Part shown: piece by piece, positions 12,459 to 21,978 of the stretch
How positions within the stretch are numbered: the stretch's first letter is position 1
How the letters are laid out: every line of letters starts with the position of its first letter
Assembly: GCA_037443085.1 (NCBI GenBank)
Contig: JBBIPA010000002.1
Coordinates: 79,658 to 143,657 of the forward strand
From: Chloroflexota bacterium
GTDB lineage: Bacteria > Chloroflexota > Dehalococcoidia > GIF9 > UBA5629
DNA: 64,000 nucleotides
Reading direction: 5' to 3'
Program-made: the position numbers and the translations under genes
Notes under the pieces: generated by a model
What the model saw: the letters and a program-made list of their open reading frames with translations, nothing else
Databases searched by the model: none
What the model was told of the DNA's origin: nothing

Positions 12459-12677
12459 TTGTTGATGCTCATTAAAATAGAAACCTATTTCGATGGCGAA
12501 TTTTGGTGCGCTCGTGGTATAGGGGAAGATATTTTCACCCAGGGCAAAACCCTGGATGAGTTGCACCATAACATTAAAGAAGCTATTACAGTCCACTTTG
12601 GTGACACAGTCGAGCCTATTACCATCCTCACCCTGTCTGAGGTACAACTGACAAATGCCAAAACTCCCACAGGTTAG
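12459..12677 (+). CDS. hicB: HicB-family antitoxin (small UPF0150 type)
   Basis: 72 aa; overlaps hicA-like gene by 23 nt. Confidence 0.65.
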   Translation: MLMLIKIETYFDGEFWCARGIGEDIFTQGKTLDELHHNIKEAITVHFGDTVEPITILTLSEVQLTNAKTPTG

Positions 12678-12897
12678 TGGCAACTCAGTTATCAATCTTC
12701 TTAGAACTATGGGCGACGCAGTCCTGAGACAGAAAGGCAGTCATGTCAGACTGCAAAAAGTCACCCCTCTAGGAGAGCATAATGTTACCGTTCCTATTCA
12801 TAAGGTTCTTGCCAAAGGGACATTAAACGATATTCTTAATAAAGTGAGTCTGTGGAATAATGTCAGCAAAGACGAACTTCTAAGTAAGTTACGATGA
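12655..12897 (+). CDS. hicA: HicA-family mRNA interferase toxin
   Basis: 80 aa; ...LRQKGSHVRLQK...HKVLAKGTL matches HicA dsRBD-like pattern with catalytic His. Confidence 0.7.
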   Translation: MPKLPQVSGNSVINLLRTMGDAVLRQKGSHVRLQKVTPLGEHNVTVPIHKVLAKGTLNDILNKVSLWNNVSKDELLSKLR

Positions 12898-13109: not shown

Positions 13110-13784
13110 ATGACCACCACGGAACTGGAAGTAAACGGCAAGACGCTGACCTGCACCATACGGTATAAGCGCATTCGTCATGCCTATTTGAGGATAAAAC
13201 CGAACTTCCACCTCGATATCAGCCTCCCCCGCAACAACAGCATTACCGCCGATAGCATCCTCAGCGAGAAACGCCGCTGGCTGGAAAAGAAGGTTAGAGA
13301 GCTATCGCGGATAAACAAAATTTTCAAAGACGGCACGGTGCTGTTCCAGGGCGACTACGTCAAGGTGGTGATGCAGATGGCGGTGCAGCCTCATGCTGAG
13401 GTGAAGCTGGATAACAGGGCTCTTACTGTCTTCGGGAAGGCGGGGCAGAAAACCGATAAGCTATTAGCCGAGTTCATCACCAGCCAGACCCTGTCATATG
13501 TGAAGCCAAAAGCGGTGGAATACGCCAGGGAGCTGGGGGTCACCTATCATAACATTGCCACCAAAGAGACCCGGAGCTGGGGCTACTGCACCCGCCAGGG
13601 CATCTTATTCTTCAACTGGCGGCTGATTTGCCTACCGCCACGCCTGGTGGACTTCATCGTGTTCCACGAGCTGCTCCACCTCAAGCACTTCAACCACTCC
13701 AAGCGCTTCAAAAACGCCATGGCACAACAGTTTACCGACTGCAAAGAGCTGGAAGCTCTATTGAAAACGTATTCGGCACATTAA
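13110..13784 (+). CDS. YgjP-like metal-dependent hydrolase (DUF45/M48-like, HExxH)
   Basis: 224 aa with FHELLHLKHFNHSKRF zinc-binding motif typical of YgjP/SprT-like hydrolases. Confidence 0.75.
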   Translation: MTTTELEVNGKTLTCTIRYKRIRHAYLRIKPNFHLDISLPRNNSITADSILSEKRRWLEKKVRELSRINKIFKDGTVLFQGDYVKVVMQMAVQPHAEVKLDNRALTVFGKAGQKTDKLLAEFITSQTLSYVKPKAVEYARELGVTYHNIATKETRSWGYCTRQGILFFNWRLICLPPRLVDFIVFHELLHLKHFNHSKRFKNAMAQQFTDCKELEALLKTYSAH

Positions 13785-13853: not shown

Positions 13854-14588
13854 ATGAAAGGGATCCCAATTTTAGTCTTGATTATTATATTGTTGGCAGT
13901 CGGGATGATTTGATCTTGTGCTTCACCTCCGACAAGTACAAGCCCGTCTTCCACAGCCCCTACACCTGAACAAATACCTGCCCCAACTCCTATCCCTCCT
14001 ACACCAGATCTACCTCCAAAACAAGCTCCTTTGCCAAAAGAAATAGAGCTAAAGTATGATGACGGTGCGGGTAATATCCTCTCTCAGACTTTTGCAACGA
14101 CTTTGGCAGTCAGAAAAAACGGATATCTTGTTGATTTCGTGCCATCAGTCAAACCTTTTACAGTAAAGAAAGTTAAACTCTATGGAACTGTCAAACTATG
14201 CCCAATTTGACCTAGGCCTGCAACTGGCCTGGAAGGTCAGTTTTTCACAGTGGAGACTTGGGATAGAGACTTAAATTCACTAAATAGTACCAGTTATCCA
14301 CTAAATAAGCTTGTCGAAAATAATCTCACCTGGATAGAATTGGAGCTCCCAAATGTGGAGGTAAACGATAAATTCTATATTCACATACGTCCTGATTTTC
14401 GTCAAGACACATTCCCTCGGGTTATATTTATTGGAACTGACGATAGTATTCCGAACGACCATTCTAATTTTTCGGATTTGCAAAGCAGTGGTAGAAAAGG
14501 AAAAATCAGCGTCTGGCCCTATGAGACTGTGGATAAAAGCAAGGTTAACTGGATGATAAGAGTTGTAGGTACTTACTTGGAACCATAG
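13854..14588 (+). pseudogene. putative lipoprotein reading frame (244 codons) interrupted by two in-frame TGA codons (13911-13913 and 14208-14210)
   Basis: ATG 13854 after AAAAGGGGG; MKGIPILVLIIILLAVGMI-TGA-SCASPPTSTSPSSTAPTPEQIP... gives signal peptide plus lipobox I-X-S-C only if TGA is read through; second TGA joins ...KLYGTVKLCPI to PRPATGLEGQFFTVETWDRD...; all three segments share one frame. Confidence 0.45.
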
Positions 14589-14781: not shown

Positions 14782-14825
14782 TTTTTCTCCGCCGGAGGCG
14801 GACGGGCGGACCTTCAGGTCCGCCC
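14782..14825. repeat. structured repeat copy 2, inverted: T-run, CCGCC-GGA-GGCGG mini-hairpin, GGGCGGACC-TTCA-GGTCCGCCC hairpin
   Basis: reverse-complement arrangement of the element at 11073-11115, including the CC-TTCA-GG loop. Confidence 0.5.
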
Positions 14826-15350
14826 CTACACTATCTTAGGTTTCCCGGGGCGGCAGATTTCCATGAGGATGAAGCTGTAGCCGTCACGGACAAGCTGGCC
14901 GCAGGGGATAAAGCCGCATTTCTGGAAGCATTTCTGCGCCCGGGTATTCCATTTCAGCGTCTTGAGGTAAACCCTGTTCAGCCTGGTATGTGAAAATATA
15001 TAGTCCACAACCGTCTGTATGGCATCGGCACCATAACCCTGGTCCCAGTATGCTTTGTTGCCGAGCATGATGCCCATCTCTGTCTCGCCGTTCTCCTCGT
15101 CCATATCGAAACAGCTACAGTTGCCGATATGCTTGCCGCTGAAGGTTTCGATGGCAAAATGGCAGGAGCGGCTGGTCTGAGACGGCGCCTCCGCCGCCAG
15201 CCGCAAATACTCTTCAAAGGAACTGCTAGTAGGCTGCGTGGCATCAAGACGGCACAGCTCAGTATCCTGCCGCCACTGATAATCCTCGATGGCATCGTAG
15301 AGACGCTTGGGTCGCAGCTTGACTTTATTGCCAGTAAGTATCGGCAGCAT
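14826..15350 (-). CDS. GNAT-family N-acetyltransferase (RimJ/RimL-like)
   Basis: 174 aa with acetyl-CoA binding pattern ...GYGADAIQTVVDYIF... Confidence 0.75.
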   Translation of the reverse strand: MLPILTGNKVKLRPKRLYDAIEDYQWRQDTELCRLDATQPTSSSFEEYLRLAAEAPSQTSRSCHFAIETFSGKHIGNCSCFDMDEENGETEMGIMLGNKAYWDQGYGADAIQTVVDYIFSHTRLNRVYLKTLKWNTRAQKCFQKCGFIPCGQLVRDGYSFILMEICRPGKPKIV

Positions 15351-15352
15351 GG

Positions 15353-16285
15353 TTAAGAGCCAAATGGTAATGGTTCATCGTCAAAATCAAGGTCTTTCAG
15401 TGCCGTGCGGGCTGCCTGACGGACTCGCTGCTGTGAACTTTTGGCGAGCCTGGTCAGAGCCTGCCTGGCTTCCTCACTGCCGATTTCACCCAGCCCCTTG
15501 ATGGCTACCTCCTGCACCCGGCTGTCTTTATCGGCGGCCAGTTTGATCAGGTGTGGCAATGCATCCTCGGCGCCCAGCTCACTGAGGGCATGGGCTGCCT
15601 CATAGCGTATCTCGGCATTATCGTTGTCGAGCTCCCTGACTAATAGCGACAGCCAGGACTCATTGCAATTGCGTCCCATGGCACGGAGGGCGCATAGTTT
15701 ACGCTCAGCACTTTTGCTGCGGTAGGCTGCCTTTATCAAGTCAGGTACCCGCGGCAGGTTCAGCGTGGCGATGGCCTCCAGCGCCAGGCACTGCAATTCA
15801 CCGCCTGCCGAGGTATCATCCAGCACTGCCAGCAATGCCTGGTACACCTCATTGGTCGAGGCAGTGGACAGCTTTCCTATCTCCCCGAGCAGGGCGAATT
15901 TACCCAGAGCCAGCACGGCAGCCTCTTTCACGGCAGCCGAGCTATCCTTGGCTAATAACTGGGTCAGCGGTGCAATATGGCGATAGTCCTCCTCATCGGC
16001 TAAACCGGAAATAGCCTCGGCTCTTACCTGGGCATCGAGGTCTTGAAGGCAAAAGAAAAATATCTCGCTGAAGTTCACCCGGAAGTTGGTCTGGCTGAGC
16101 TTTACCAGTTGCATAATAACCTGCCGCCGGCGCTCTGTCATAGTTCTCGCCCAGGACTGTTTCATGAAGTCGAGGTCACTCTCATTGAGGTTGGACAGGT
16201 GAATCAGCTTAGACGGCACCAGCAGCTCGTTGGGGTCGAGGGTGGCGGCAATATACTTCTTATTGGAAGCGGCTTCCTGCCTCAC
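15353..16285 (-). CDS. HEAT-repeat (PBS lyase-like) protein
   Basis: tandem ~30 aa repeats with ...VRxxAAxALGxIG... pattern. Confidence 0.7.
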   Translation of the reverse strand: MRQEAASNKKYIAATLDPNELLVPSKLIHLSNLNESDLDFMKQSWARTMTERRRQVIMQLVKLSQTNFRVNFSEIFFFCLQDLDAQVRAEAISGLADEEDYRHIAPLTQLLAKDSSAAVKEAAVLALGKFALLGEIGKLSTASTNEVYQALLAVLDDTSAGGELQCLALEAIATLNLPRVPDLIKAAYRSKSAERKLCALRAMGRNCNESWLSLLVRELDNDNAEIRYEAAHALSELGAEDALPHLIKLAADKDSRVQEVAIKGLGEIGSEEARQALTRLAKSSQQRVRQAARTALKDLDFDDEPLPFGS

Positions 16286-17134
16286 CTAGTTCTCCTTGTG
16301 TTCCTCTTCGTCGTCCTCTTCATCTTCCTCCTCTTCTTCTTCGTACTCCTCCACATCTTCCGGCGGCCATACCGGCTTGGTATAGCTGGTGATGAACTCC
16401 TCCATGGCTTCAGCAGCTAATTTCTTCATCTCTTCATCCGTCTGTTTGGCCACCACCGCCAGCTCCGCCAGGTCGATATCGATGTCGAGTATCTTCACCA
16501 TGACGCCCAGGATAGCCAGCGCCGCTTTGGGATTGGGTATGCGCGTGGTATACATGGGTACCTCGCCTAGCAGGCAGATGCCATCCATCTCCCGCTCCTT
16601 GGCTACTCCCAGGAACAAGCCGTTGAGGCCGGCAATCTGAATGTCTCCGCGGAGCACCACGTCATATTTCTTTAGCTCGTCAACCAGATTCTGATTGGTC
16701 GCCGCCGCCCAGACACGGGGCATTTCAGTGTGATGAATCTTGGCAATGGCGGCGGCGCAGGTGTATACCCGCTTAATGCGGAGCTTTTTACCCATGTCCA
16801 GAACGCAGTTCGCCAGCTCATAGCCCTTGGTACCGGGCTGTTCATCGCTGATAAACAGCAGCAACCCCCGGTCCGATTTGGGATTGTGCCAGTAATAGAA
16901 TTTGCTTTCGGGAAACTGGGGAGCTTCGACGATGTTGTTCTTGACCATGACGCCAATGGGATTGTAGAACTCAAAGGGCTCGATAGTGCCGACCTCTTCA
17001 GCCTTCAGCTTATCCTTCAGATACCGAGCCAGTATCAGCGACACATTGCCGATGCCGGGCCATGAGGCAAACAGGTCGTAATCCTTTGACTTCAACTCCT
17101 TGGAGAGCCTGATGGCATTCTTCATGGTATTCAT
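16286..17134 (-). CDS. PAC2-family protein (archaeal PbaA/proteasome-assembly-chaperone-like) with poly-acidic C-terminal tail
   Basis: WPGIGNVSLILARYLKDKLKAEEVGTIE matches PAC2 N-terminal signature; C-terminus EDVEEYEEEEEEDEEDDEEEHKEN; no HbYX motif. Confidence 0.65.
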   Translation of the reverse strand: MNTMKNAIRLSKELKSKDYDLFASWPGIGNVSLILARYLKDKLKAEEVGTIEPFEFYNPIGVMVKNNIVEAPQFPESKFYYWHNPKSDRGLLLFISDEQPGTKGYELANCVLDMGKKLRIKRVYTCAAAIAKIHHTEMPRVWAAATNQNLVDELKKYDVVLRGDIQIAGLNGLFLGVAKEREMDGICLLGEVPMYTTRIPNPKAALAILGVMVKILDIDIDLAELAVVAKQTDEEMKKLAAEAMEEFITSYTKPVWPPEDVEEYEEEEEEDEEDDEEEHKEN

Positions 17135-17156
17135 GGTGATTGAAGCCAGCCTCTCA

Positions 17157-18458
17157 TTACTCTTTAGTCGCTACCGCTAGATTGGCACAGTAGATGCTGG
17201 GGGTCTTCAAGAACCCTTCCACCCATCTCACGTCGCTGCCGATGGTTTCAACCTGCTTCAGTACCTGGTATACATTACCAGAAACCATGGTATCTTTCAC
17301 CCTGCCGACTATCTCCCCGTTCTCAATCTTGTAGCCGAGCAGGACATTGCCGCTGAAGTCGCCGTTTAAGACATTGCCCTGAGTGGCGCCGATAAGTTGC
17401 TCCACCACCAACCCCAGCTTGATATCCGCCACCATGTCAGAGAAAGAGGTGTCATCTTCCTTAATAATCAGCGAATTGGTGGATGGTGACGGCAAACCGC
17501 CGTTGCGGCTGCCATTGCCAGTGCTCCTGGCATTGGCCAGCCCGGCAGTTTGCAGGTCATAGAGAAATTGCGACACCACGCCCTGTTCGATGAGCGGCGT
17601 CCGTTGCCCTGGCACTCCCTCGTCATCGCAGGGACAACTGGCTACCTGATAGGGCAGGGTGGCATCATCATACAGGGAAAGCCTGTTATCAAAAACCAGC
17701 GTTCCCAGTTTATCCTTCAATGGTGAAGCCCCCATAAACACTATCTTACCATTAAATGCCATCATCAGGGGACTGATTAAGGCGCTGGCCACGCCGCTGG
17801 GCTTGAAAATCACCGGCATGGGCTGGGTGGCTAAACGGACTTTCTTCTTGGCCAGCTCCAGTTGCAGGGTTACTTCGTCAGCCAGCTCTTTGCTATCCAG
17901 CAGCGGATGGCATGAGCTCTGGCTATTGCCAACAAAGAGCATATCGCTATCCTGTACCAGAATGCCTTCGATGCCCATGGAGAAAAAGCTTTTTTCGTAG
18001 CCGGCTTCGCCGCCCCGGGAGTTGATGATGCGCACTGAGGCCACGCCTTTGCCCACCGAAGCTTCGCATAAAATCTCCGGGGAATGATCCCTTACCGTGG
18101 CGATAAGCTGCTCGCCGAGCTGCACCATGGCATCTATAGGCACCTGCTCTACCTGCGGGTCATAGATGGCTACCTCGGGATAGGATTGTGCAGCGGGGAA
18201 ATCGAATTTAGCTACAGCACCGAAGCGGCACGTCTCCAGCGCCATGGTGACCAGCGCCTCGGGGTCAACCGGACCAGCCACCTGGGCGAAGCCCACTCTG
18301 CCATCCTTGATAAGCCGCAAGGCGGTGGTAGTGCTCTCCTTGGTCAGTATCTGTTTCAACTGGTTAGCTTCAAACTTGACCGGCGTCCTGCGGGAAGTAA
18401 CCTGAAACACCTCGGCCTGTTCAGCTACCTTTTTAGCTCTGGCCAGTATCTGTTCCAT
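17157..18458 (-). CDS. pmbA: TldE/PmbA metalloprotease subunit
   Basis: 433 aa TldD/PmbA family; adjacent to tldD. Confidence 0.85.
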   Translation of the reverse strand: MEQILARAKKVAEQAEVFQVTSRRTPVKFEANQLKQILTKESTTTALRLIKDGRVGFAQVAGPVDPEALVTMALETCRFGAVAKFDFPAAQSYPEVAIYDPQVEQVPIDAMVQLGEQLIATVRDHSPEILCEASVGKGVASVRIINSRGGEAGYEKSFFSMGIEGILVQDSDMLFVGNSQSSCHPLLDSKELADEVTLQLELAKKKVRLATQPMPVIFKPSGVASALISPLMMAFNGKIVFMGASPLKDKLGTLVFDNRLSLYDDATLPYQVASCPCDDEGVPGQRTPLIEQGVVSQFLYDLQTAGLANARSTGNGSRNGGLPSPSTNSLIIKEDDTSFSDMVADIKLGLVVEQLIGATQGNVLNGDFSGNVLLGYKIENGEIVGRVKDTMVSGNVYQVLKQVETIGSDVRWVEGFLKTPSIYCANLAVATKE

Positions 18459-19820
18459 CTAGCTGCCACCACCCACCAGGCAATGGCGGATTCTGATATG
18501 GGGGCTGCCATTGGAAACAGGCAACGGCGACTGGCCGCCTTTGCCGCAGCCGCCACCCTGGTTCATATCTAGGTCATTGCCGATGGCATCGATGTTATGG
18601 AGCGTGGTGAACACATTGCCGCTGAGTACCACCGGCTGCACCAGTTCAGCCACCTTGCCGTTGCGAATCATATAGGCTTCGGCAGCAGAAAAGGTGAACA
18701 TCTCCAGGCTGGTGGTGCCACCGTACCAGTCTTTGGCATAGATGCCTTCTTTAATGTCGCTGAGCATATCCTCAAAAGACATATCGCCCGGCTCGATGTA
18801 GGTATTGGTCATGCGCACGATGGGAGGAAAAGCATAGCTGATGGCGCGGGCATTGCCGGTAACCTCTTCCCCCATCTTGGCAGCAGTTTCGCGGGAATGA
18901 AGCCTGCCTTCCAGTATGCCCTCACGAATCAGATAGGTTTTGGTGGCGGGAACGCCTTCATCATCGTACTTATAGCTGCCGCGCAAGCCGGGAACCGCAG
19001 CGCCGTCGACGATATTGAGGTGGCTGCCGCCAAATTCCCGCCCCAGCACCATAAGCTCGCACAGTTTCTGGTTCTCATAGACATGGTCGGACTCGGATAA
19101 ATGCCCGAAAGCCTCGTGGACGAAGACGCCGGCCAGCACCGGGTCCAGCACCACGGTATAATCACCGCCAGCTGCCTGGGGTGCCGAAAGCAGGTTAACC
19201 GCCCGCTGCGCCATATCCCTGACCTGGTCTTGCAGACCTTCTACGGCGGCATAGTCGCCGCGGCTGCCCAAGCTCAATCCCACCTGCCTCACCGTGCCAT
19301 CCTGCGAGGCAATAGCAGTGAGCCGCAGGCTGAGGTCTACTCGGTTCTGCTCGATATAGGCGCCTTCGGAGCTGGCAAAGATGACCTTTTTTCGACCGTC
19401 AATGTAGCTGATATTCGATGTCTGGATTTTGGGTGTGCGCAGAATAAGGTCGTTGTACTCATCAAGCAACTGTTTTTTAGATTCCAGCGGGATAGCAGTG
19501 GGGTCTTTCCCGGTTTCCGCTGCCACCATGTCCACCGCTGGTTCCACCGGGCTGAGCTTGCTCTCGCCCCTGCCCACCAGCCTGGCCTGCTTTACCGCCA
19601 ACTCTACCTTACCCCGCAATTTTTCCAGGTTATTGAAGCTGACAAATCCCCAACCGCCCCTGACCAGAGCGCGGACATTGCCGCCGACGCCGGAGGTTCG
19701 GCCTATCTCTTCCAGCCGCTCGCCGCGGTAGACAATCCGCGTCGCCTGTCCCTCATCGAGCCGAATCTCGATGTAGTCAGCATCATGTCCTTTTAAGATA
19801 TTGGTAATTTCATCACGCAT
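18459..19820 (-). CDS. tldD: TldD metalloprotease subunit
   Basis: 453 aa; HEAFGH zinc-binding motif; start abuts pmbA. Confidence 0.9.
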   Translation of the reverse strand: MRDEITNILKGHDADYIEIRLDEGQATRIVYRGERLEEIGRTSGVGGNVRALVRGGWGFVSFNNLEKLRGKVELAVKQARLVGRGESKLSPVEPAVDMVAAETGKDPTAIPLESKKQLLDEYNDLILRTPKIQTSNISYIDGRKKVIFASSEGAYIEQNRVDLSLRLTAIASQDGTVRQVGLSLGSRGDYAAVEGLQDQVRDMAQRAVNLLSAPQAAGGDYTVVLDPVLAGVFVHEAFGHLSESDHVYENQKLCELMVLGREFGGSHLNIVDGAAVPGLRGSYKYDDEGVPATKTYLIREGILEGRLHSRETAAKMGEEVTGNARAISYAFPPIVRMTNTYIEPGDMSFEDMLSDIKEGIYAKDWYGGTTSLEMFTFSAAEAYMIRNGKVAELVQPVVLSGNVFTTLHNIDAIGNDLDMNQGGGCGKGGQSPLPVSNGSPHIRIRHCLVGGGS

Positions 19821-19957
19821 AGTGAGGTCTCCAGAATCTCTCTATTGTAGCCCGATAGACTATGCAGAGGCAAGATGCTTTCGTGGTTTTGAAGGGGCGA
19901 AGTCCCGGTGGAGAAAAAAACACCAAAATTATATACTTATAGATGGAGGGGGTCACC

Positions 19958-20215
19958 ATGCAATCAAGTCTCATCGGGAAGATCGAGAAAGCCAAGCGCT
20001 ACGCTCAAGAGCCGGAACGAATCACCTTCAATGACCTCGCCGTCGATTTCCGTGGAGAAAACAATACGTATAAGGTGAGCTATGAAGCTGGGAAGTGGCA
20101 ATGCGCCTGTTTATTCTTCTCGCAGAGGGGAATTTGCAGCCATACCATGGCATTGCAGCGACTGCTCGGCAGCATGTTGCCCAAGGAAGCCCTTACCGCG
20201 CCGATAACCGAGTAG
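19958..20215 (+). CDS. SWIM-type zinc-finger small protein
   Basis: ATG 19958 six nt after GGAGGGGG; CxC-x11-CxH (WQCACLFFSQRGICSH) matches SWIM motif. Confidence 0.5.
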   Translation: MQSSLIGKIEKAKRYAQEPERITFNDLAVDFRGENNTYKVSYEAGKWQCACLFFSQRGICSHTMALQRLLGSMLPKEALTAPITE

Positions 20216-20240: not shown

Positions 20241-20645
20241 TCAGCCACTTTGGGCTAAGGCGAACTTCTCTATGCCCGCCTTTTTTATGGTCTTGATGTT
20301 TTTGAGATAGTCTTTCTTCAGCTTATCGCAAATGGCAAAATCGGCACACTCCCAGCAACCGACCAGTTCTTTTTTCTGGCAGCATTTTCGAATCTTGCAC
20401 CAGGGATTACCTCCTCCCCCACGACAAGCCTTAGGGCAATGCAACATGGCAAGGCCATCGAGAGCCTTCTTGAATGGCCCGTAGTCGCCCAGAAAGGGAA
20501 TCTCCGGCCAGGCTTCTTTCATCTTAGCAGCGCGCAGTTCTCGCCTCAGCGCTTTGGCTGCCTCAGAAACGGTCTGCCTGTAACCAAAACACTGGGTACA
20601 GTTCAAGCCGCAATACCCAATCAGAGTGATAGCTTCCTGACTCAT
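20241..20645 (-). CDS. DUF3795-family cysteine-rich protein
   Basis: 134 aa; GYCGLNCTQCFGY N-terminal motif and further Cys pairs typical of DUF3795. Confidence 0.6.
   Translation of the reverse strand: MSQEAITLIGYCGLNCTQCFGYRQTVSEAAKALRRELRAAKMKEAWPEIPFLGDYGPFKKALDGLAMLHCPKACRGGGGNPWCKIRKCCQKKELVGCWECADFAICDKLKKDYLKNIKTIKKAGIEKFALAQSG
20252..20288 (+). terminator. possible intrinsic terminator for SWIM gene (hairpin AAGGCG...CGCCTT then TTTTTTAT), embedded in 3' end of convergent DUF3795 gene
   Basis: stem 20257-20262/20277-20282 followed by T-run. Confidence 0.35.
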
Positions 20646-20661
20646 TTTTCAAAATACCTTA

Positions 20662-21978
20662 CTATCTCTGGTAGTAGCTTATGGTCTCAGCCACCACAAA
20701 CAGTGAGCCGGTAACCAGAATTAAATCGCTTTTTTGAGCCAGAGACAGCGCTTGAGCTATAGCCTCAGCAACGCTTTTGGCGATGGCAACTTCACGCCCC
20801 TGTTGGGAAAATGCTTCAACGATGACAGGAATTCGTGCTGCCCTGGGATGAGCCGAGCTGGTGACGATGATATGCGGAGTGAAAGCTGACAGCTCCTGTG
20901 CCATCCCCGGAGTATCTTTATCGCATGACGTGCCGAAGATGACGAAACACCTGTCATAGGTAAAATATTTCCTTGTTGCCTCGATAAGCTTCTGCATGGA
21001 ATAGGCATTATGAGCGCCATCAACCACCACCAAAGGCTTGTCTCGTAGAATCTGAAGCCGGCCCGGCCAGTCCACACGGTTGAGTCCCTGAATAATAGCT
21101 TCCCTGGGAATCTTTGCCCCGAGATGGTTTAATGCCTCAAGGGCAGCCACCGCCGCTGCGGCGTTTTCAAGTTGATAGTCGCCGATGAGCGGAATAGTGA
21201 GGCTATAGTCAGCATCTTTGCCGGTAACTAGCAACGATTGATGGCTGAGGTCTCCGCCGGTTCGGCGCCAGGTAATATCCCTGCCTACCTGTATCATTTT
21301 TGTTTTTTGCTGGTGGGAGGTCTGCTCAATTATTTCCAGTGCCTCCGGCTGCTGGGGGAAATTGACCACAGTACTTCCCGGCTTGATAATGCCCGCCTTT
21401 TCCGCAGCTATTTTGGCTATGGTATTGCCCAGCACTTCGGTATGGTCGAGGCTGATGGAAGTGATAACGCAGACATCGCCCCTGGCGACATTGGTGGCGT
21501 CAAGCCTGCCCCCCAGACCCACCTCCAGCACCTGGAAATCAACGCTATTCTGCTGGAAATAGGCAAAGGCGGCAGCAGTCAATATCTCGAAGGTGGTCAG
21601 GGCACCATAAGCAGCTTCTTTATTCATTCTCTCCACAAGCGGTTGCAGCCTGGTCACGATGGAGGCGAATTCAGCTTCAGAAATGAGAGCATTATTAATC
21701 TTGGCGCGCTCTCTCAGGGTGAGGAGGTGGGGGGAGGTGAACAGACCTGTCTTATAGCCAGCGGTGTGCAGTACCTGGGCGATCATTGCGGCAGTGCTAC
21801 CCTTGCCCTTGGTGCCGGCGATATGCACCGTCTTCGTGCTCAAATGGGGATTGCCCAGTGGCTCCAGCAGCTTCTCCATTCGCCTCAGGTCATAGTTCGC
21901 CGAGGTATAGGCAATGCCCGGAGTTTTTTCATAATCGGTGAAGCTCAAGACATAGGCTTCAGCCTGACGGTAATCCAT
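20662..21978 (-). CDS. folC: bifunctional folylpolyglutamate synthase/dihydrofolate synthase
   Basis: 438 aa Mur ligase family; GTKGKGS P-loop. Confidence 0.9.
   Translation of the reverse strand: MDYRQAEAYVLSFTDYEKTPGIAYTSANYDLRRMEKLLEPLGNPHLSTKTVHIAGTKGKGSTAAMIAQVLHTAGYKTGLFTSPHLLTLRERAKINNALISEAEFASIVTRLQPLVERMNKEAAYGALTTFEILTAAAFAYFQQNSVDFQVLEVGLGGRLDATNVARGDVCVITSISLDHTEVLGNTIAKIAAEKAGIIKPGSTVVNFPQQPEALEIIEQTSHQQKTKMIQVGRDITWRRTGGDLSHQSLLVTGKDADYSLTIPLIGDYQLENAAAAVAALEALNHLGAKIPREAIIQGLNRVDWPGRLQILRDKPLVVVDGAHNAYSMQKLIEATRKYFTYDRCFVIFGTSCDKDTPGMAQELSAFTPHIIVTSSAHPRAARIPVIVEAFSQQGREVAIAKSVAEAIAQALSLAQKSDLILVTGSLFVVAETISYYQR

Follow-up and report, generated by a model that had tools for sequence, protein, structure and literature searches.

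In Pyrococcus furiosus the PAC2-family protein PbaB forms a homotetramer through its beta4-beta5 hairpin and works as an ATP-independent activator of the proteasome and as a holdase (PMC3605417). Its helix alpha6 is followed by 19-23 disordered last residues, and these flexible C-terminal "tentacles" dock on the proteasome through a hydrophobic-Tyr-X (HbYX) motif and hold unfolded clients without ATP (PMC3605417). PbaA of P. furiosus (3WZ2/5Y9N) does not bind the mature proteasome and assembles with PF0014 instead (PMC6992696). In archaea no single operon unites the proteasome assembly chaperones with the genes for the alpha and beta subunits of the proteasome (Fuchs et al., 2017; PMC5666114). 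The bacterial PAC2 homologs, notably those from phyla devoid of a proteasome, are orphans as to function and have been interpreted as evolutionary relics (PMC5666114). Here we analyze a five-gene operon of a member of the Dehalococcoidia (Chloroflexota), contained in a 64-kb stretch of contig JBBIPA010000002.1 (hereafter the window), in which a PAC2-family protein with an acidic C-terminal tail is encoded together with the subunits of a TldD/TldE (TldD/E) protease.

TldD/E of Escherichia coli is a hollow heterodimer, a "molecular pencil sharpener" whose active site is reached solely by fully unfolded chains that enter N-terminus-first through a narrow channel (PMC5810440). It processes the precursor of microcin B17 and its physiological role is still unclear (PMC5810440). 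The window operon resembles the E. coli system (5NJ5) in the adjacency of the two genes and in the presence of HExxxH and a C-terminal Cys in TldD and their absence from TldE; unlike the E. coli genes, it is extended by genes encoding PAC2, HEAT-repeat and GNAT proteins. Whereas PbaB is an archaeal proteasome activator, the PAC2 protein of the window is bacterial, belongs to a phylum reported to be proteasome-less and is encoded in an operon with TldD/E. The linkage of PAC2 to tldDE proved robust in the Dehalococcoidia, strong but not absolute, and judging from sequence and gene context we are inclined to think that the operon encodes a PbaB-like adaptor or regulator re-targeted to TldD/E.

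Organization and conservation of the operon

The preliminary description of this DNA had pointed out five co-directional genes separated by short gaps, and this was borne out: the genes occupy 14826-19820 of the minus strand and are spaced by 0/22/0/2 nucleotides (nt) from TldD to GNAT.

18459-19820, minus strand: TldD-like protein, 453 residues; first, second and third PmbA_TldD domains (Pfam), HEAFGH zinc motif
17157-18458, minus strand: TldE/PmbA-like non-catalytic partner, 433 residues; the same three Pfam domains, without HExxxH
16286-17134, minus strand: PAC2-family, PbaB-like protein, 282 residues; PF09754, E=5.9e-40
16289-16360, minus strand: coding tract of the acidic tail; imperfect GAR/GAY codon repeat
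15353-16285, minus strand: HEAT-repeat protein (PBS-HEAT / alphaRep-type), 310 residues; HEAT_2, E=2.5e-33
14826-15350, minus strand: GNAT protein, Acetyltransf_3 (RimJ/RimL/SpeG-type), 174 residues; PF13302, E=4e-23

At two of the junctions a start codon abuts the preceding stop codon, the ATG of tldE following directly on the TAG of tldD and the GTG of the HEAT gene on the TAG of the PAC2 gene; the HEAT/GNAT junction reads TAA-cc-ATG.

A protein search with the PAC2 sequence returned 2366 relatives, the best 120 of which (68-95% identity) come from Dehalococcoidia or Chloroflexota wherever the source is named. When one genome per GTDB species was scanned, 300 genomes proved to have a PAC2 relative, and neighborhoods were taken from the best 80 loci, nearly all titled Dehalococcoidia, Dehalococcoidales, Chloroflexota or "Chloroflexia" and one titled just "bacterium." Among the non-redundant Dehalococcoidia loci with sufficient flanking DNA, TldE was directly upstream of PAC2 in 73/73 and TldD was found upstream in 66/67, while HEAT was present downstream of PAC2 in 72/74 and GNAT in 67/70. 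Locus L009, an apparent counter-example without TldD, was rejected as such, the place being occupied by a scaffold gap (a run of N). In the 60 loci with all five genes complete, the median gaps were 0 nt for TldD-TldE, 7 nt for TldE-PAC2, 0 nt for PAC2-HEAT and -8 nt for HEAT-GNAT. The flanks of the cluster turn over, the nearest upstream gene belonging to at least 10 families and the nearest downstream gene to at least 16, with FolC as the commonest upstream neighbor (31/48 loci). A second deep Dehalococcoidia sub-lineage, in which PAC2 is 44% identical to that of the window, has the same five genes among wholly different neighbors, and TldD/E linkage was also found in 13 of the 14 assessable acidic-tail loci from metagenomes. 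The complete chromosomes CP070642.1, OY970123.1 and CP070842.1 are among the carriers of the cluster. Since the linkage holds in relatives and in the second sub-lineage, an adjacency unique to this genome is ruled out, and the conservation of the PAC2-tldD/pmbA linkage, which the preliminary description had proposed to verify, can be taken as established for these loci.

Natural variants drop HEAT, GNAT or both, which indicates that TldD-TldE-PAC2 is the invariant core and supports the earlier suggestion that HEAT and GNAT are accessory parts. Core-only loci, with neither of the two, comprise L081 and eleven metagenome loci; GNAT is missing in L072 and L078, and HEAT in L041 and several metagenome loci. 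Downstream of PAC2, the assessable acidic-tail metagenome loci carry HEAT and GNAT (17), GNAT only (3) or neither (11). The GNAT gene overlaps the HEAT gene in most orthologous loci, as the negative median gap reflects, and it lies directly behind PAC2 where HEAT is missing; HEAT and GNAT extend the PAC2 gene as a translationally coupled addition, each part of which can be lost separately.

Other PAC2 subfamilies

A profile search of 1.84 billion cluster representatives retrieved 1799 PAC2 relatives, and 122 full-length representatives were compared. The other bacterial subfamilies have the core motifs in common with the window PAC2, to which they are 25-45% identical, and differ from it in their C-terminal peptides. 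The largest bacterial class among those compared (69/122) consists of proteins of ~320 residues with the strongly conserved C-terminus ...A.xLKxELDRxGxFxxYEDRFLDLF[KR]...; its members include P0125, P0127 and P0136-P0139, some members are named Omnitrophica and Dehalococcoidia by their sources, and the "YEDRFLDLF" motif looks, by its sequence, like a docking peptide for some partner. The closest outgroup of the acidic-tail PAC2 is a P0123-like class with a short tail, WERPxEEExx. TldD/E was near PAC2 in 0/3 loci of the "YEDRFLDLF" class (L088 8001-8972, L089 8001-8963, L090 8001-8978) and in 0/7 short-tail loci (six P0123-like and L110), compared with the 13/14 acidic-tail loci of the same metagenome scan, and neither HEAT nor GNAT stood beside PAC2 in these 3 and 7 loci. 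As these subfamilies are unlinked, it is the acidic tail, not the PAC2 fold itself, that goes with the TldD/E context.

The three "YEDRFLDLF" loci share no partner, although two have a gene for an HhH-GPD glycosylase in the vicinity. Genes for an acyl-CoA dehydrogenase and the electron transfer flavoprotein (ETF) subunits beta and alpha follow the short-tail PAC2 in 6/7 loci (L092, L094-L097, L102), and the same trio is found just upstream of the "YEDRFLDLF" PAC2 in L089 (4949-7910). This PAC2-ETF neighborhood may reflect lineage synteny or a second recurrent neighborhood of PAC2.

The PAC2 protein and its acidic tail

The PAC2 protein matches PF09754 over profile positions 1-215 of 215, with 137.8 bits against a cut-off of 25.8, and its best profile match in the PDB is PbaB (3VR0, E=1.9e-28, residues 5-259). 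It scores under the NCBIfam cut-offs for the archaeal equivalogs (TIGR00162, 123.5 vs 200 bits; TIGR00161, 70.5 vs 199) and, by these scores, is related to but distinct from the PbaA/PbaB-type equivalogs. In the AlphaFold2 monomer model (predicted local distance difference test, pLDDT, 75.9) the alpha/beta/alpha core is confident, and beyond a long helix near the C-terminus (223-247) the remaining residues, 248-282, have pLDDT <50. When this model was compared with the PDB by Foldseek, the top 21 matches were all PAC2-family chains, with PbaB at a template-modeling (TM) score of 0.79-0.81 and 30% identity. By profile and fold, therefore, the window protein is a PAC2-family member, and it shares with PbaB the three-layer alpha/beta/alpha core, the beta4-beta5 hairpin, the long peripheral C-terminal helix and a disordered tail. 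The beta4-beta5 hairpin (residues ~57-78) is nearly invariant and yet has pLDDT 42-54 in the monomer model, a combination that hints at an oligomer or partner interface.

The motifs WPGxG, Q99, T125, GNG and CxxGE are common to all PAC2 classes and largely also to PbaB, while the polar residues H134, H135, E137, C187 and E191 are invariant in the subfamily, as is the YTKPVWP motif that precedes the acidic tail; 22% of the alignment columns are at least 97% conserved. After ...YTKPVWPP, the tail of the window protein reads EDVEEYEEEEEEDEEDDEEEHKEN, which amounts to 24 residues, ending ...EEEHKEN. The tail had previously been presented as a 24-residue run of Glu/Asp without an HbYX motif; its length and the absence of HbYX from the C-terminus, which ends KEN, were confirmed, but the run is interrupted, 19 of the 24 residues being acidic. 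All of the 120 close homologs have an acid-rich tail after YTKPVWP, with variable length and last residues (KEN, EEN, EED, EEF, EEY, DKN and others), and in none of them is the penultimate residue Tyr. PbaB too has an acidic patch in its tail (...PHEEED...), the difference being that PbaB carries HbYX and the PAC2 group a poly-Asp/Glu tail, which keeps its composition across the clade and spans 6-45 residues across orthologous loci. Since HbYX proved absent when looked for and no proteasome partner is apparent, the protein is not a strict PbaB-type proteasome activator, although it may act like one on another protease.

In the tail coding tract, where GAA, GAG, GAT and GAC codons are mixed, Tandem Repeats Finder placed repeats at 16301-16352, with periods of 6/12/15/18 nt and 72-92% matches. 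The preliminary description had considered this tract slippage-prone, a claim that is not supported beyond evolutionary variation in length: a phase-variable slippage tract was rejected on the grounds that the repeat is imperfect and that the acidic tail is in-frame in every homolog and locus examined. From the sequences, the length variation fits codon-wise expansion and contraction under selection for composition. Where HEAT and GNAT are present the tails are longer, with a median of 18 residues and 13 acidic ones as against 9 and 7 in core-only loci, a difference confounded by phylogeny.

Two further groups of PAC2-family proteins are instructive. The PbaA-PF0014 complex is a precedent for a PAC2 scaffold with a non-proteasome partner, and the fold match of PbaA to the window PAC2 has E~1e-15; PbaA differs in forming a pentamer, in building a cage with PF0014 and in keeping HbYX, and the window PAC2 matches it less well (E=2.2e-13) than PbaB. 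We know of no protease partner of PbaA. The actinobacterial Rv2125 (5UN0), Rv2714 (2WAM) and Cgl1923 (2P90) are likewise bacterial PAC2-family proteins of unsettled function, but they are far more distant (E=9e-14 or weaker, 17-20% identity), have neither the YTKPVWP motif nor the acidic tail, and come from organisms that do have a proteasome. To our knowledge none of the three is linked to TldD/E. The actinobacterial homologs had initially been taken for established proteasome chaperones, for which no support was found in the literature searched.

The TldD/E subunits and the HEAT and GNAT proteins

All three PmbA_TldD domains were found in both TldD and TldE, the C-terminal domain of TldD with E=8e-62. 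TldD has its HEAFGH motif at residue 235 and, when aligned with 5NJ5 (E=1.7e-44), keeps the zinc ligands of E. coli TldD, namely the two His and the Cys near the C-terminus (GGCGK); TldE is without HExxxH. The mean identity among 63 TldD orthologs is 74%. Both subunits are divergent members of their families, since they fall below the NCBIfam equivalog cut-offs (TldD, 279 vs 635; TldE, 89 vs 438), and TldD is nearer the archaeal type, with 279 bits for the NCBIfam archaeal TldD vs 164 for the E. coli type, both below cut-off. The channel-mouth residues R232, R305 and K446 of E. coli TldD are replaced by N, L (with an adjacent R) and D, and the region of the acidic "plug" loop of E. coli TldD/TldE aligns poorly with the window protein. 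Like the E. coli enzyme, TldD/E of the window would be expected to form a hollow shell in which unfolded chains are degraded N-terminus-first.

The HEAT protein matches HEAT_2 in 3 stretches (114.6 bits), its N-terminal ~75 residues having no family match. In the PDB it matches alphaRep consensus designs (strongly) and MTH187; it fails the NblB and CpcE/F equivalogs of NCBIfam and is the least conserved of the five genes (42%). The GNAT protein matches Acetyltransf_3 with 83.1 bits against a cut-off of 25.4. Its nearest solved relatives are SpeG spermidine acetyltransferases, at 33 bits only, and all its NCBIfam equivalog matches are far under cut-off (SpeG, 26 bits vs 218).

Proteasome and previous literature

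The expectation that this lineage lacks a 20S proteasome is backed by the literature, according to which Chloroflexi carry variants of the proteasome assembly chaperone (PAC) but "do not contain a proteasome," their PAC homologs being interpreted as vestiges of a proteasome system of ancient date (Fuchs et al., 2017; PMC5666114). The existence of PAC homologs in proteasome-less Chloroflexi was therefore already known. A search by query sequence gave no proteasome- or HslV-like match in the 64-kb window and 90 loci (1.2 Mb), and there was no PF00227 gene in the annotated PAC2 neighborhoods and no proteasome-type gene near PAC2 in any locus. A full-text literature search retrieved no paper connecting PAC2/PAC homologs with TldD/E, and none that describes the TldD/E operon, the acidic-tail signature or the HEAT/GNAT extension.

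A possible role at TldD/E

If the PAC2 protein has been re-targeted to TldD/E, it would oligomerize through its highly conserved beta4-beta5 hairpin, by which PbaB assembles into a tetramer, and would act as an ATP-independent adaptor, holdase or gate regulator of the protease. Its flexible acidic C-terminal "tentacles" may catch unfolded, plausibly basic, polypeptides or dock on the protease; since it is N-termini that TldD/E engages, a tail at the C-terminus would more probably serve in capture or docking than as a substrate. The HEAT solenoid could serve as a scaffold or second adaptor, and GNAT might modify substrate N-termini or another amine, which is the most speculative step. A delivery or gating factor makes sense because TldD/E admits solely unfolded chains via a narrow channel, and a helper that presents such chains or gates the channel would be a plausible functional analog of PbaB at the 20S proteasome.

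A broader version, which we regard as possible yet distinctly more doubtful, is that PAC2/PbaB proteins are general tail-addressed adaptors of self-compartmentalizing proteases, HbYX leading to the 20S proteasome, the poly-acidic tail to TldD/E and "YEDRFLDLF" to another partner; Dehalococcoidia would thus have an activator-like cap or holdase on an orphan TldD/E, and GNAT might control which N-termini enter the N-end-first channel.

On this broader view TldD/E would gain its first dedicated regulator, and bacterial PAC2 a function outside the proteasome. If the partnership of PAC2 with TldD/E is real, a mere swap of the C-terminal tail can direct an accessory scaffold of the proteasome to a chambered protease of unrelated kind, which bears on the evolution of protease regulators as well as on the argument that Chloroflexi PAC homologs are evidence of an ancestral proteasome. 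As a class-wide operon joins the PAC2 and TldD/E families, both gain a concrete and cheap experimental entry.

Several observations weigh against this proposal. The evidence for it is gene context, that is, comparative genomics within a single class; all linked loci belong to that class, and since the linkage may have arisen once they are not independent events. The TldE-PAC2 gap exceeds 30 nt in 16/60 complete loci and reaches 932 nt, the seven such loci that were read having unrelated genes there (lipoproteins, a phosphoesterase and a DUF262-like protein), and L131 has PAC2-GNAT with no TldD/E within 6 kb, so that PAC2-HEAT-GNAT can be a separate transcription unit. Synteny alone can persist, as is seen from FolC and a SWIM gene, which likewise keep their place in much of the clade of the window. 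Docking of the tail on a basic TldD channel mouth was considered and rejected, as R232, R305 and K446 are not conserved and there is no basic partner protein (isoelectric points of the four partners, 5.0-7.5), which leaves the tail with no obvious electrostatic receptor.

Alternative explanations

The alternative that survives best, although we consider it improbable on the whole, is that PAC2 is functionally independent of tldDE, a proteasome relic or generic holdase co-inherited by synteny in streamlined genomes and perhaps co-expressed. The interpretation of Chloroflexi PAC homologs as proteasome remnants (Fuchs et al., 2017; PMC5666114) favors it, and so do the restriction of the linked loci to one class, perhaps as descendants of one event, the synteny of FolC and the SWIM gene in many loci, the unrelated insertions between TldE and PAC2, and L131. 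Against independence, the adjacency outlasts the full turnover of both flanks and the divergence of PAC2 to 44% identity, and solely the acidic-tail subfamily is linked, its nearest unlinked relatives standing elsewhere. PAC2 is also strongly constrained, evolving as slowly as TldD: mean corrected distances were 0.34 for TldD, 0.35 for the PAC2 core, 0.56 for TldE, 0.60 for FolC, 0.73 for GNAT and 0.82 for HEAT. Moreover, its distances track those of the protease subunits far better than those of the neighboring FolC. Over 38 loci, and with the known heterodimer TldD-TldE as positive control (distance-matrix r=0.94), r was 0.87 for TldE-PAC2, 0.86 for TldD-PAC2, 0.86 for PAC2-HEAT and 0.59 for PAC2-FolC; the partial r with FolC controlled was 0.85 for TldD-TldE, 0.84 for TldE-PAC2, 0.78 for TldD-PAC2 and 0.78 for PAC2-HEAT. 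This co-variation is supportive and not decisive, being confounded by shared history and dependent on one control gene.

It is less probable still that PAC2-(HEAT)-GNAT is an acetylation or polyamine module of its own, in which, e.g., the tail would bind polycations and a SpeG-like GNAT acetylate them, with TldD/E as a mere pathway or regulatory neighbor. PAC2-HEAT-GNAT is indeed the tightest sub-block (gaps 0 and -8 nt), GNAT stays behind PAC2 without HEAT and, in L131, without tldDE, and in one sub-lineage the block is bracketed by repeats resembling repetitive extragenic palindromic (REP) elements and lies apart from tldDE. Further points on this side are the SpeG relationship of GNAT, the longer tails that accompany HEAT and GNAT, and the frequency of spermidine synthase, the largest downstream-neighbor family (32/53 loci scored), with S-adenosylmethionine (AdoMet) decarboxylase beside it in L001-L004. 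The similarity to SpeG is weak, however, by both the PDB and the NCBIfam scores given above; the spermidine genes are on the opposite strand and often absent, including from the window and from L086/L087; and no small-molecule function is known for PAC2-family proteins. The twelve loci that have TldD-TldE-PAC2 without HEAT and GNAT show, in addition, that GNAT is not needed for the role of PAC2.

We consider it very unlikely that the PAC2-like protein is an enzyme, such as a hydrolase or amidase with a phosphorylase/hydrolase-like fold, that acts on TldD/E products or substrates. Its unusually high conservation and the invariant polar residues H134, H135, E137, C187 and E191 would suit an enzyme, and its distant fold neighbors (Foldseek ranks 39-49) include methylthioadenosine/S-adenosylhomocysteine nucleosidases, uridine phosphorylase and peptidyl-tRNA hydrolase. 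With TM 0.33-0.43 these matches are weak, the wider family does not conserve the HH.E triplet, and most of the invariant motifs (PGIG, Q99, T125, G..G, LLGE) are common to PbaB, for which no catalytic activity is known.

Some clusters for peptide antibiotics include a GNAT. A maturation cluster for a peptide made on ribosomes and modified post-translationally, with TldD/E removing the leader peptide, as the E. coli enzyme does in processing the microcin B17 precursor (PMC5810440), and GNAT modifying the product, is hardly credible, as genes for a precursor peptide, a cyclodehydratase, a radical-SAM enzyme and an exporter are all missing from the conserved block and the flanking genes are variable and of housekeeping type. 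An anti-phage defense system was also rejected, the PADLOC matches being to generic HEAT repeats only.

Flanking signals and neighboring genes

The 122-nt intergenic region upstream of tldD and the end of the operon contain the following candidate signals.

19928-19956, minus strand: promoter-like site GTGACC-17-TATAAT, 10/12 by consensus match only
19844-19873: second, weaker promoter-like site from the consensus scan
14804-14825, minus strand: perfect 9-bp GC-rich hairpin GGGCGGACC-TGAA-GGTCCGCCC, beginning at the first base past the GNAT stop

The hairpin is present in a single copy in the window (0 matches expected by chance) and has no T-run after it; it is likely the end of the operon.

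Divergent from tldD, a gene at 19943-20215 (plus strand) encodes a SWIM zinc-finger protein of 90 residues (PF04434, just over cut-off), whose homolog separates folC from tldD in the majority of loci from the clade of the window and is not found in the second sub-lineage. Beyond it are the genes for a Cys-rich DUF3795 protein (20241-20645, minus strand) and a FolC-type Mur ligase (20662-21978, minus strand). On the downstream side, the window has a HicA-toxin-like gene (12655-12897, plus strand), a YgjP-like metallopeptidase gene (13110-13784, plus strand) and an open reading frame of 112 codons without family match (14250-14588, plus strand); since most relatives have spermidine synthase at that position, the downstream flank has been replaced in this genome.

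A repeat of ~90 nt, which comprises a pair of strong GC hairpins (predicted -46.7 kcal/mol, z=-4.1), brackets the PAC2-HEAT-GNAT module in one Dehalococcoidia sub-lineage, one copy being immediately upstream of PAC2 and another immediately downstream of GNAT (L071 7904-8000; L077 3750-3841 and 6257-6334; L124 5912-5991 and 8282-8339; L168 1943-2022 and 4350-4434; L079 110-182 and 2633-2725). As further copies exist elsewhere in the same loci, it looks like an element of the REP or miniature inverted-repeat transposable element type. The loci that carry it also have unrelated genes between tldE and PAC2, and it is absent from the window.

Polyamine genes lie convergent to GNAT in many loci, encoding spermidine synthase and AdoMet decarboxylase (e.g., L001 10357-11705, L004 10431-14606). 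In L004 there is also a pyruvoyl arginine decarboxylase gene, and a spermidine synthase gene is split by an insertion sequence with an rve integrase.

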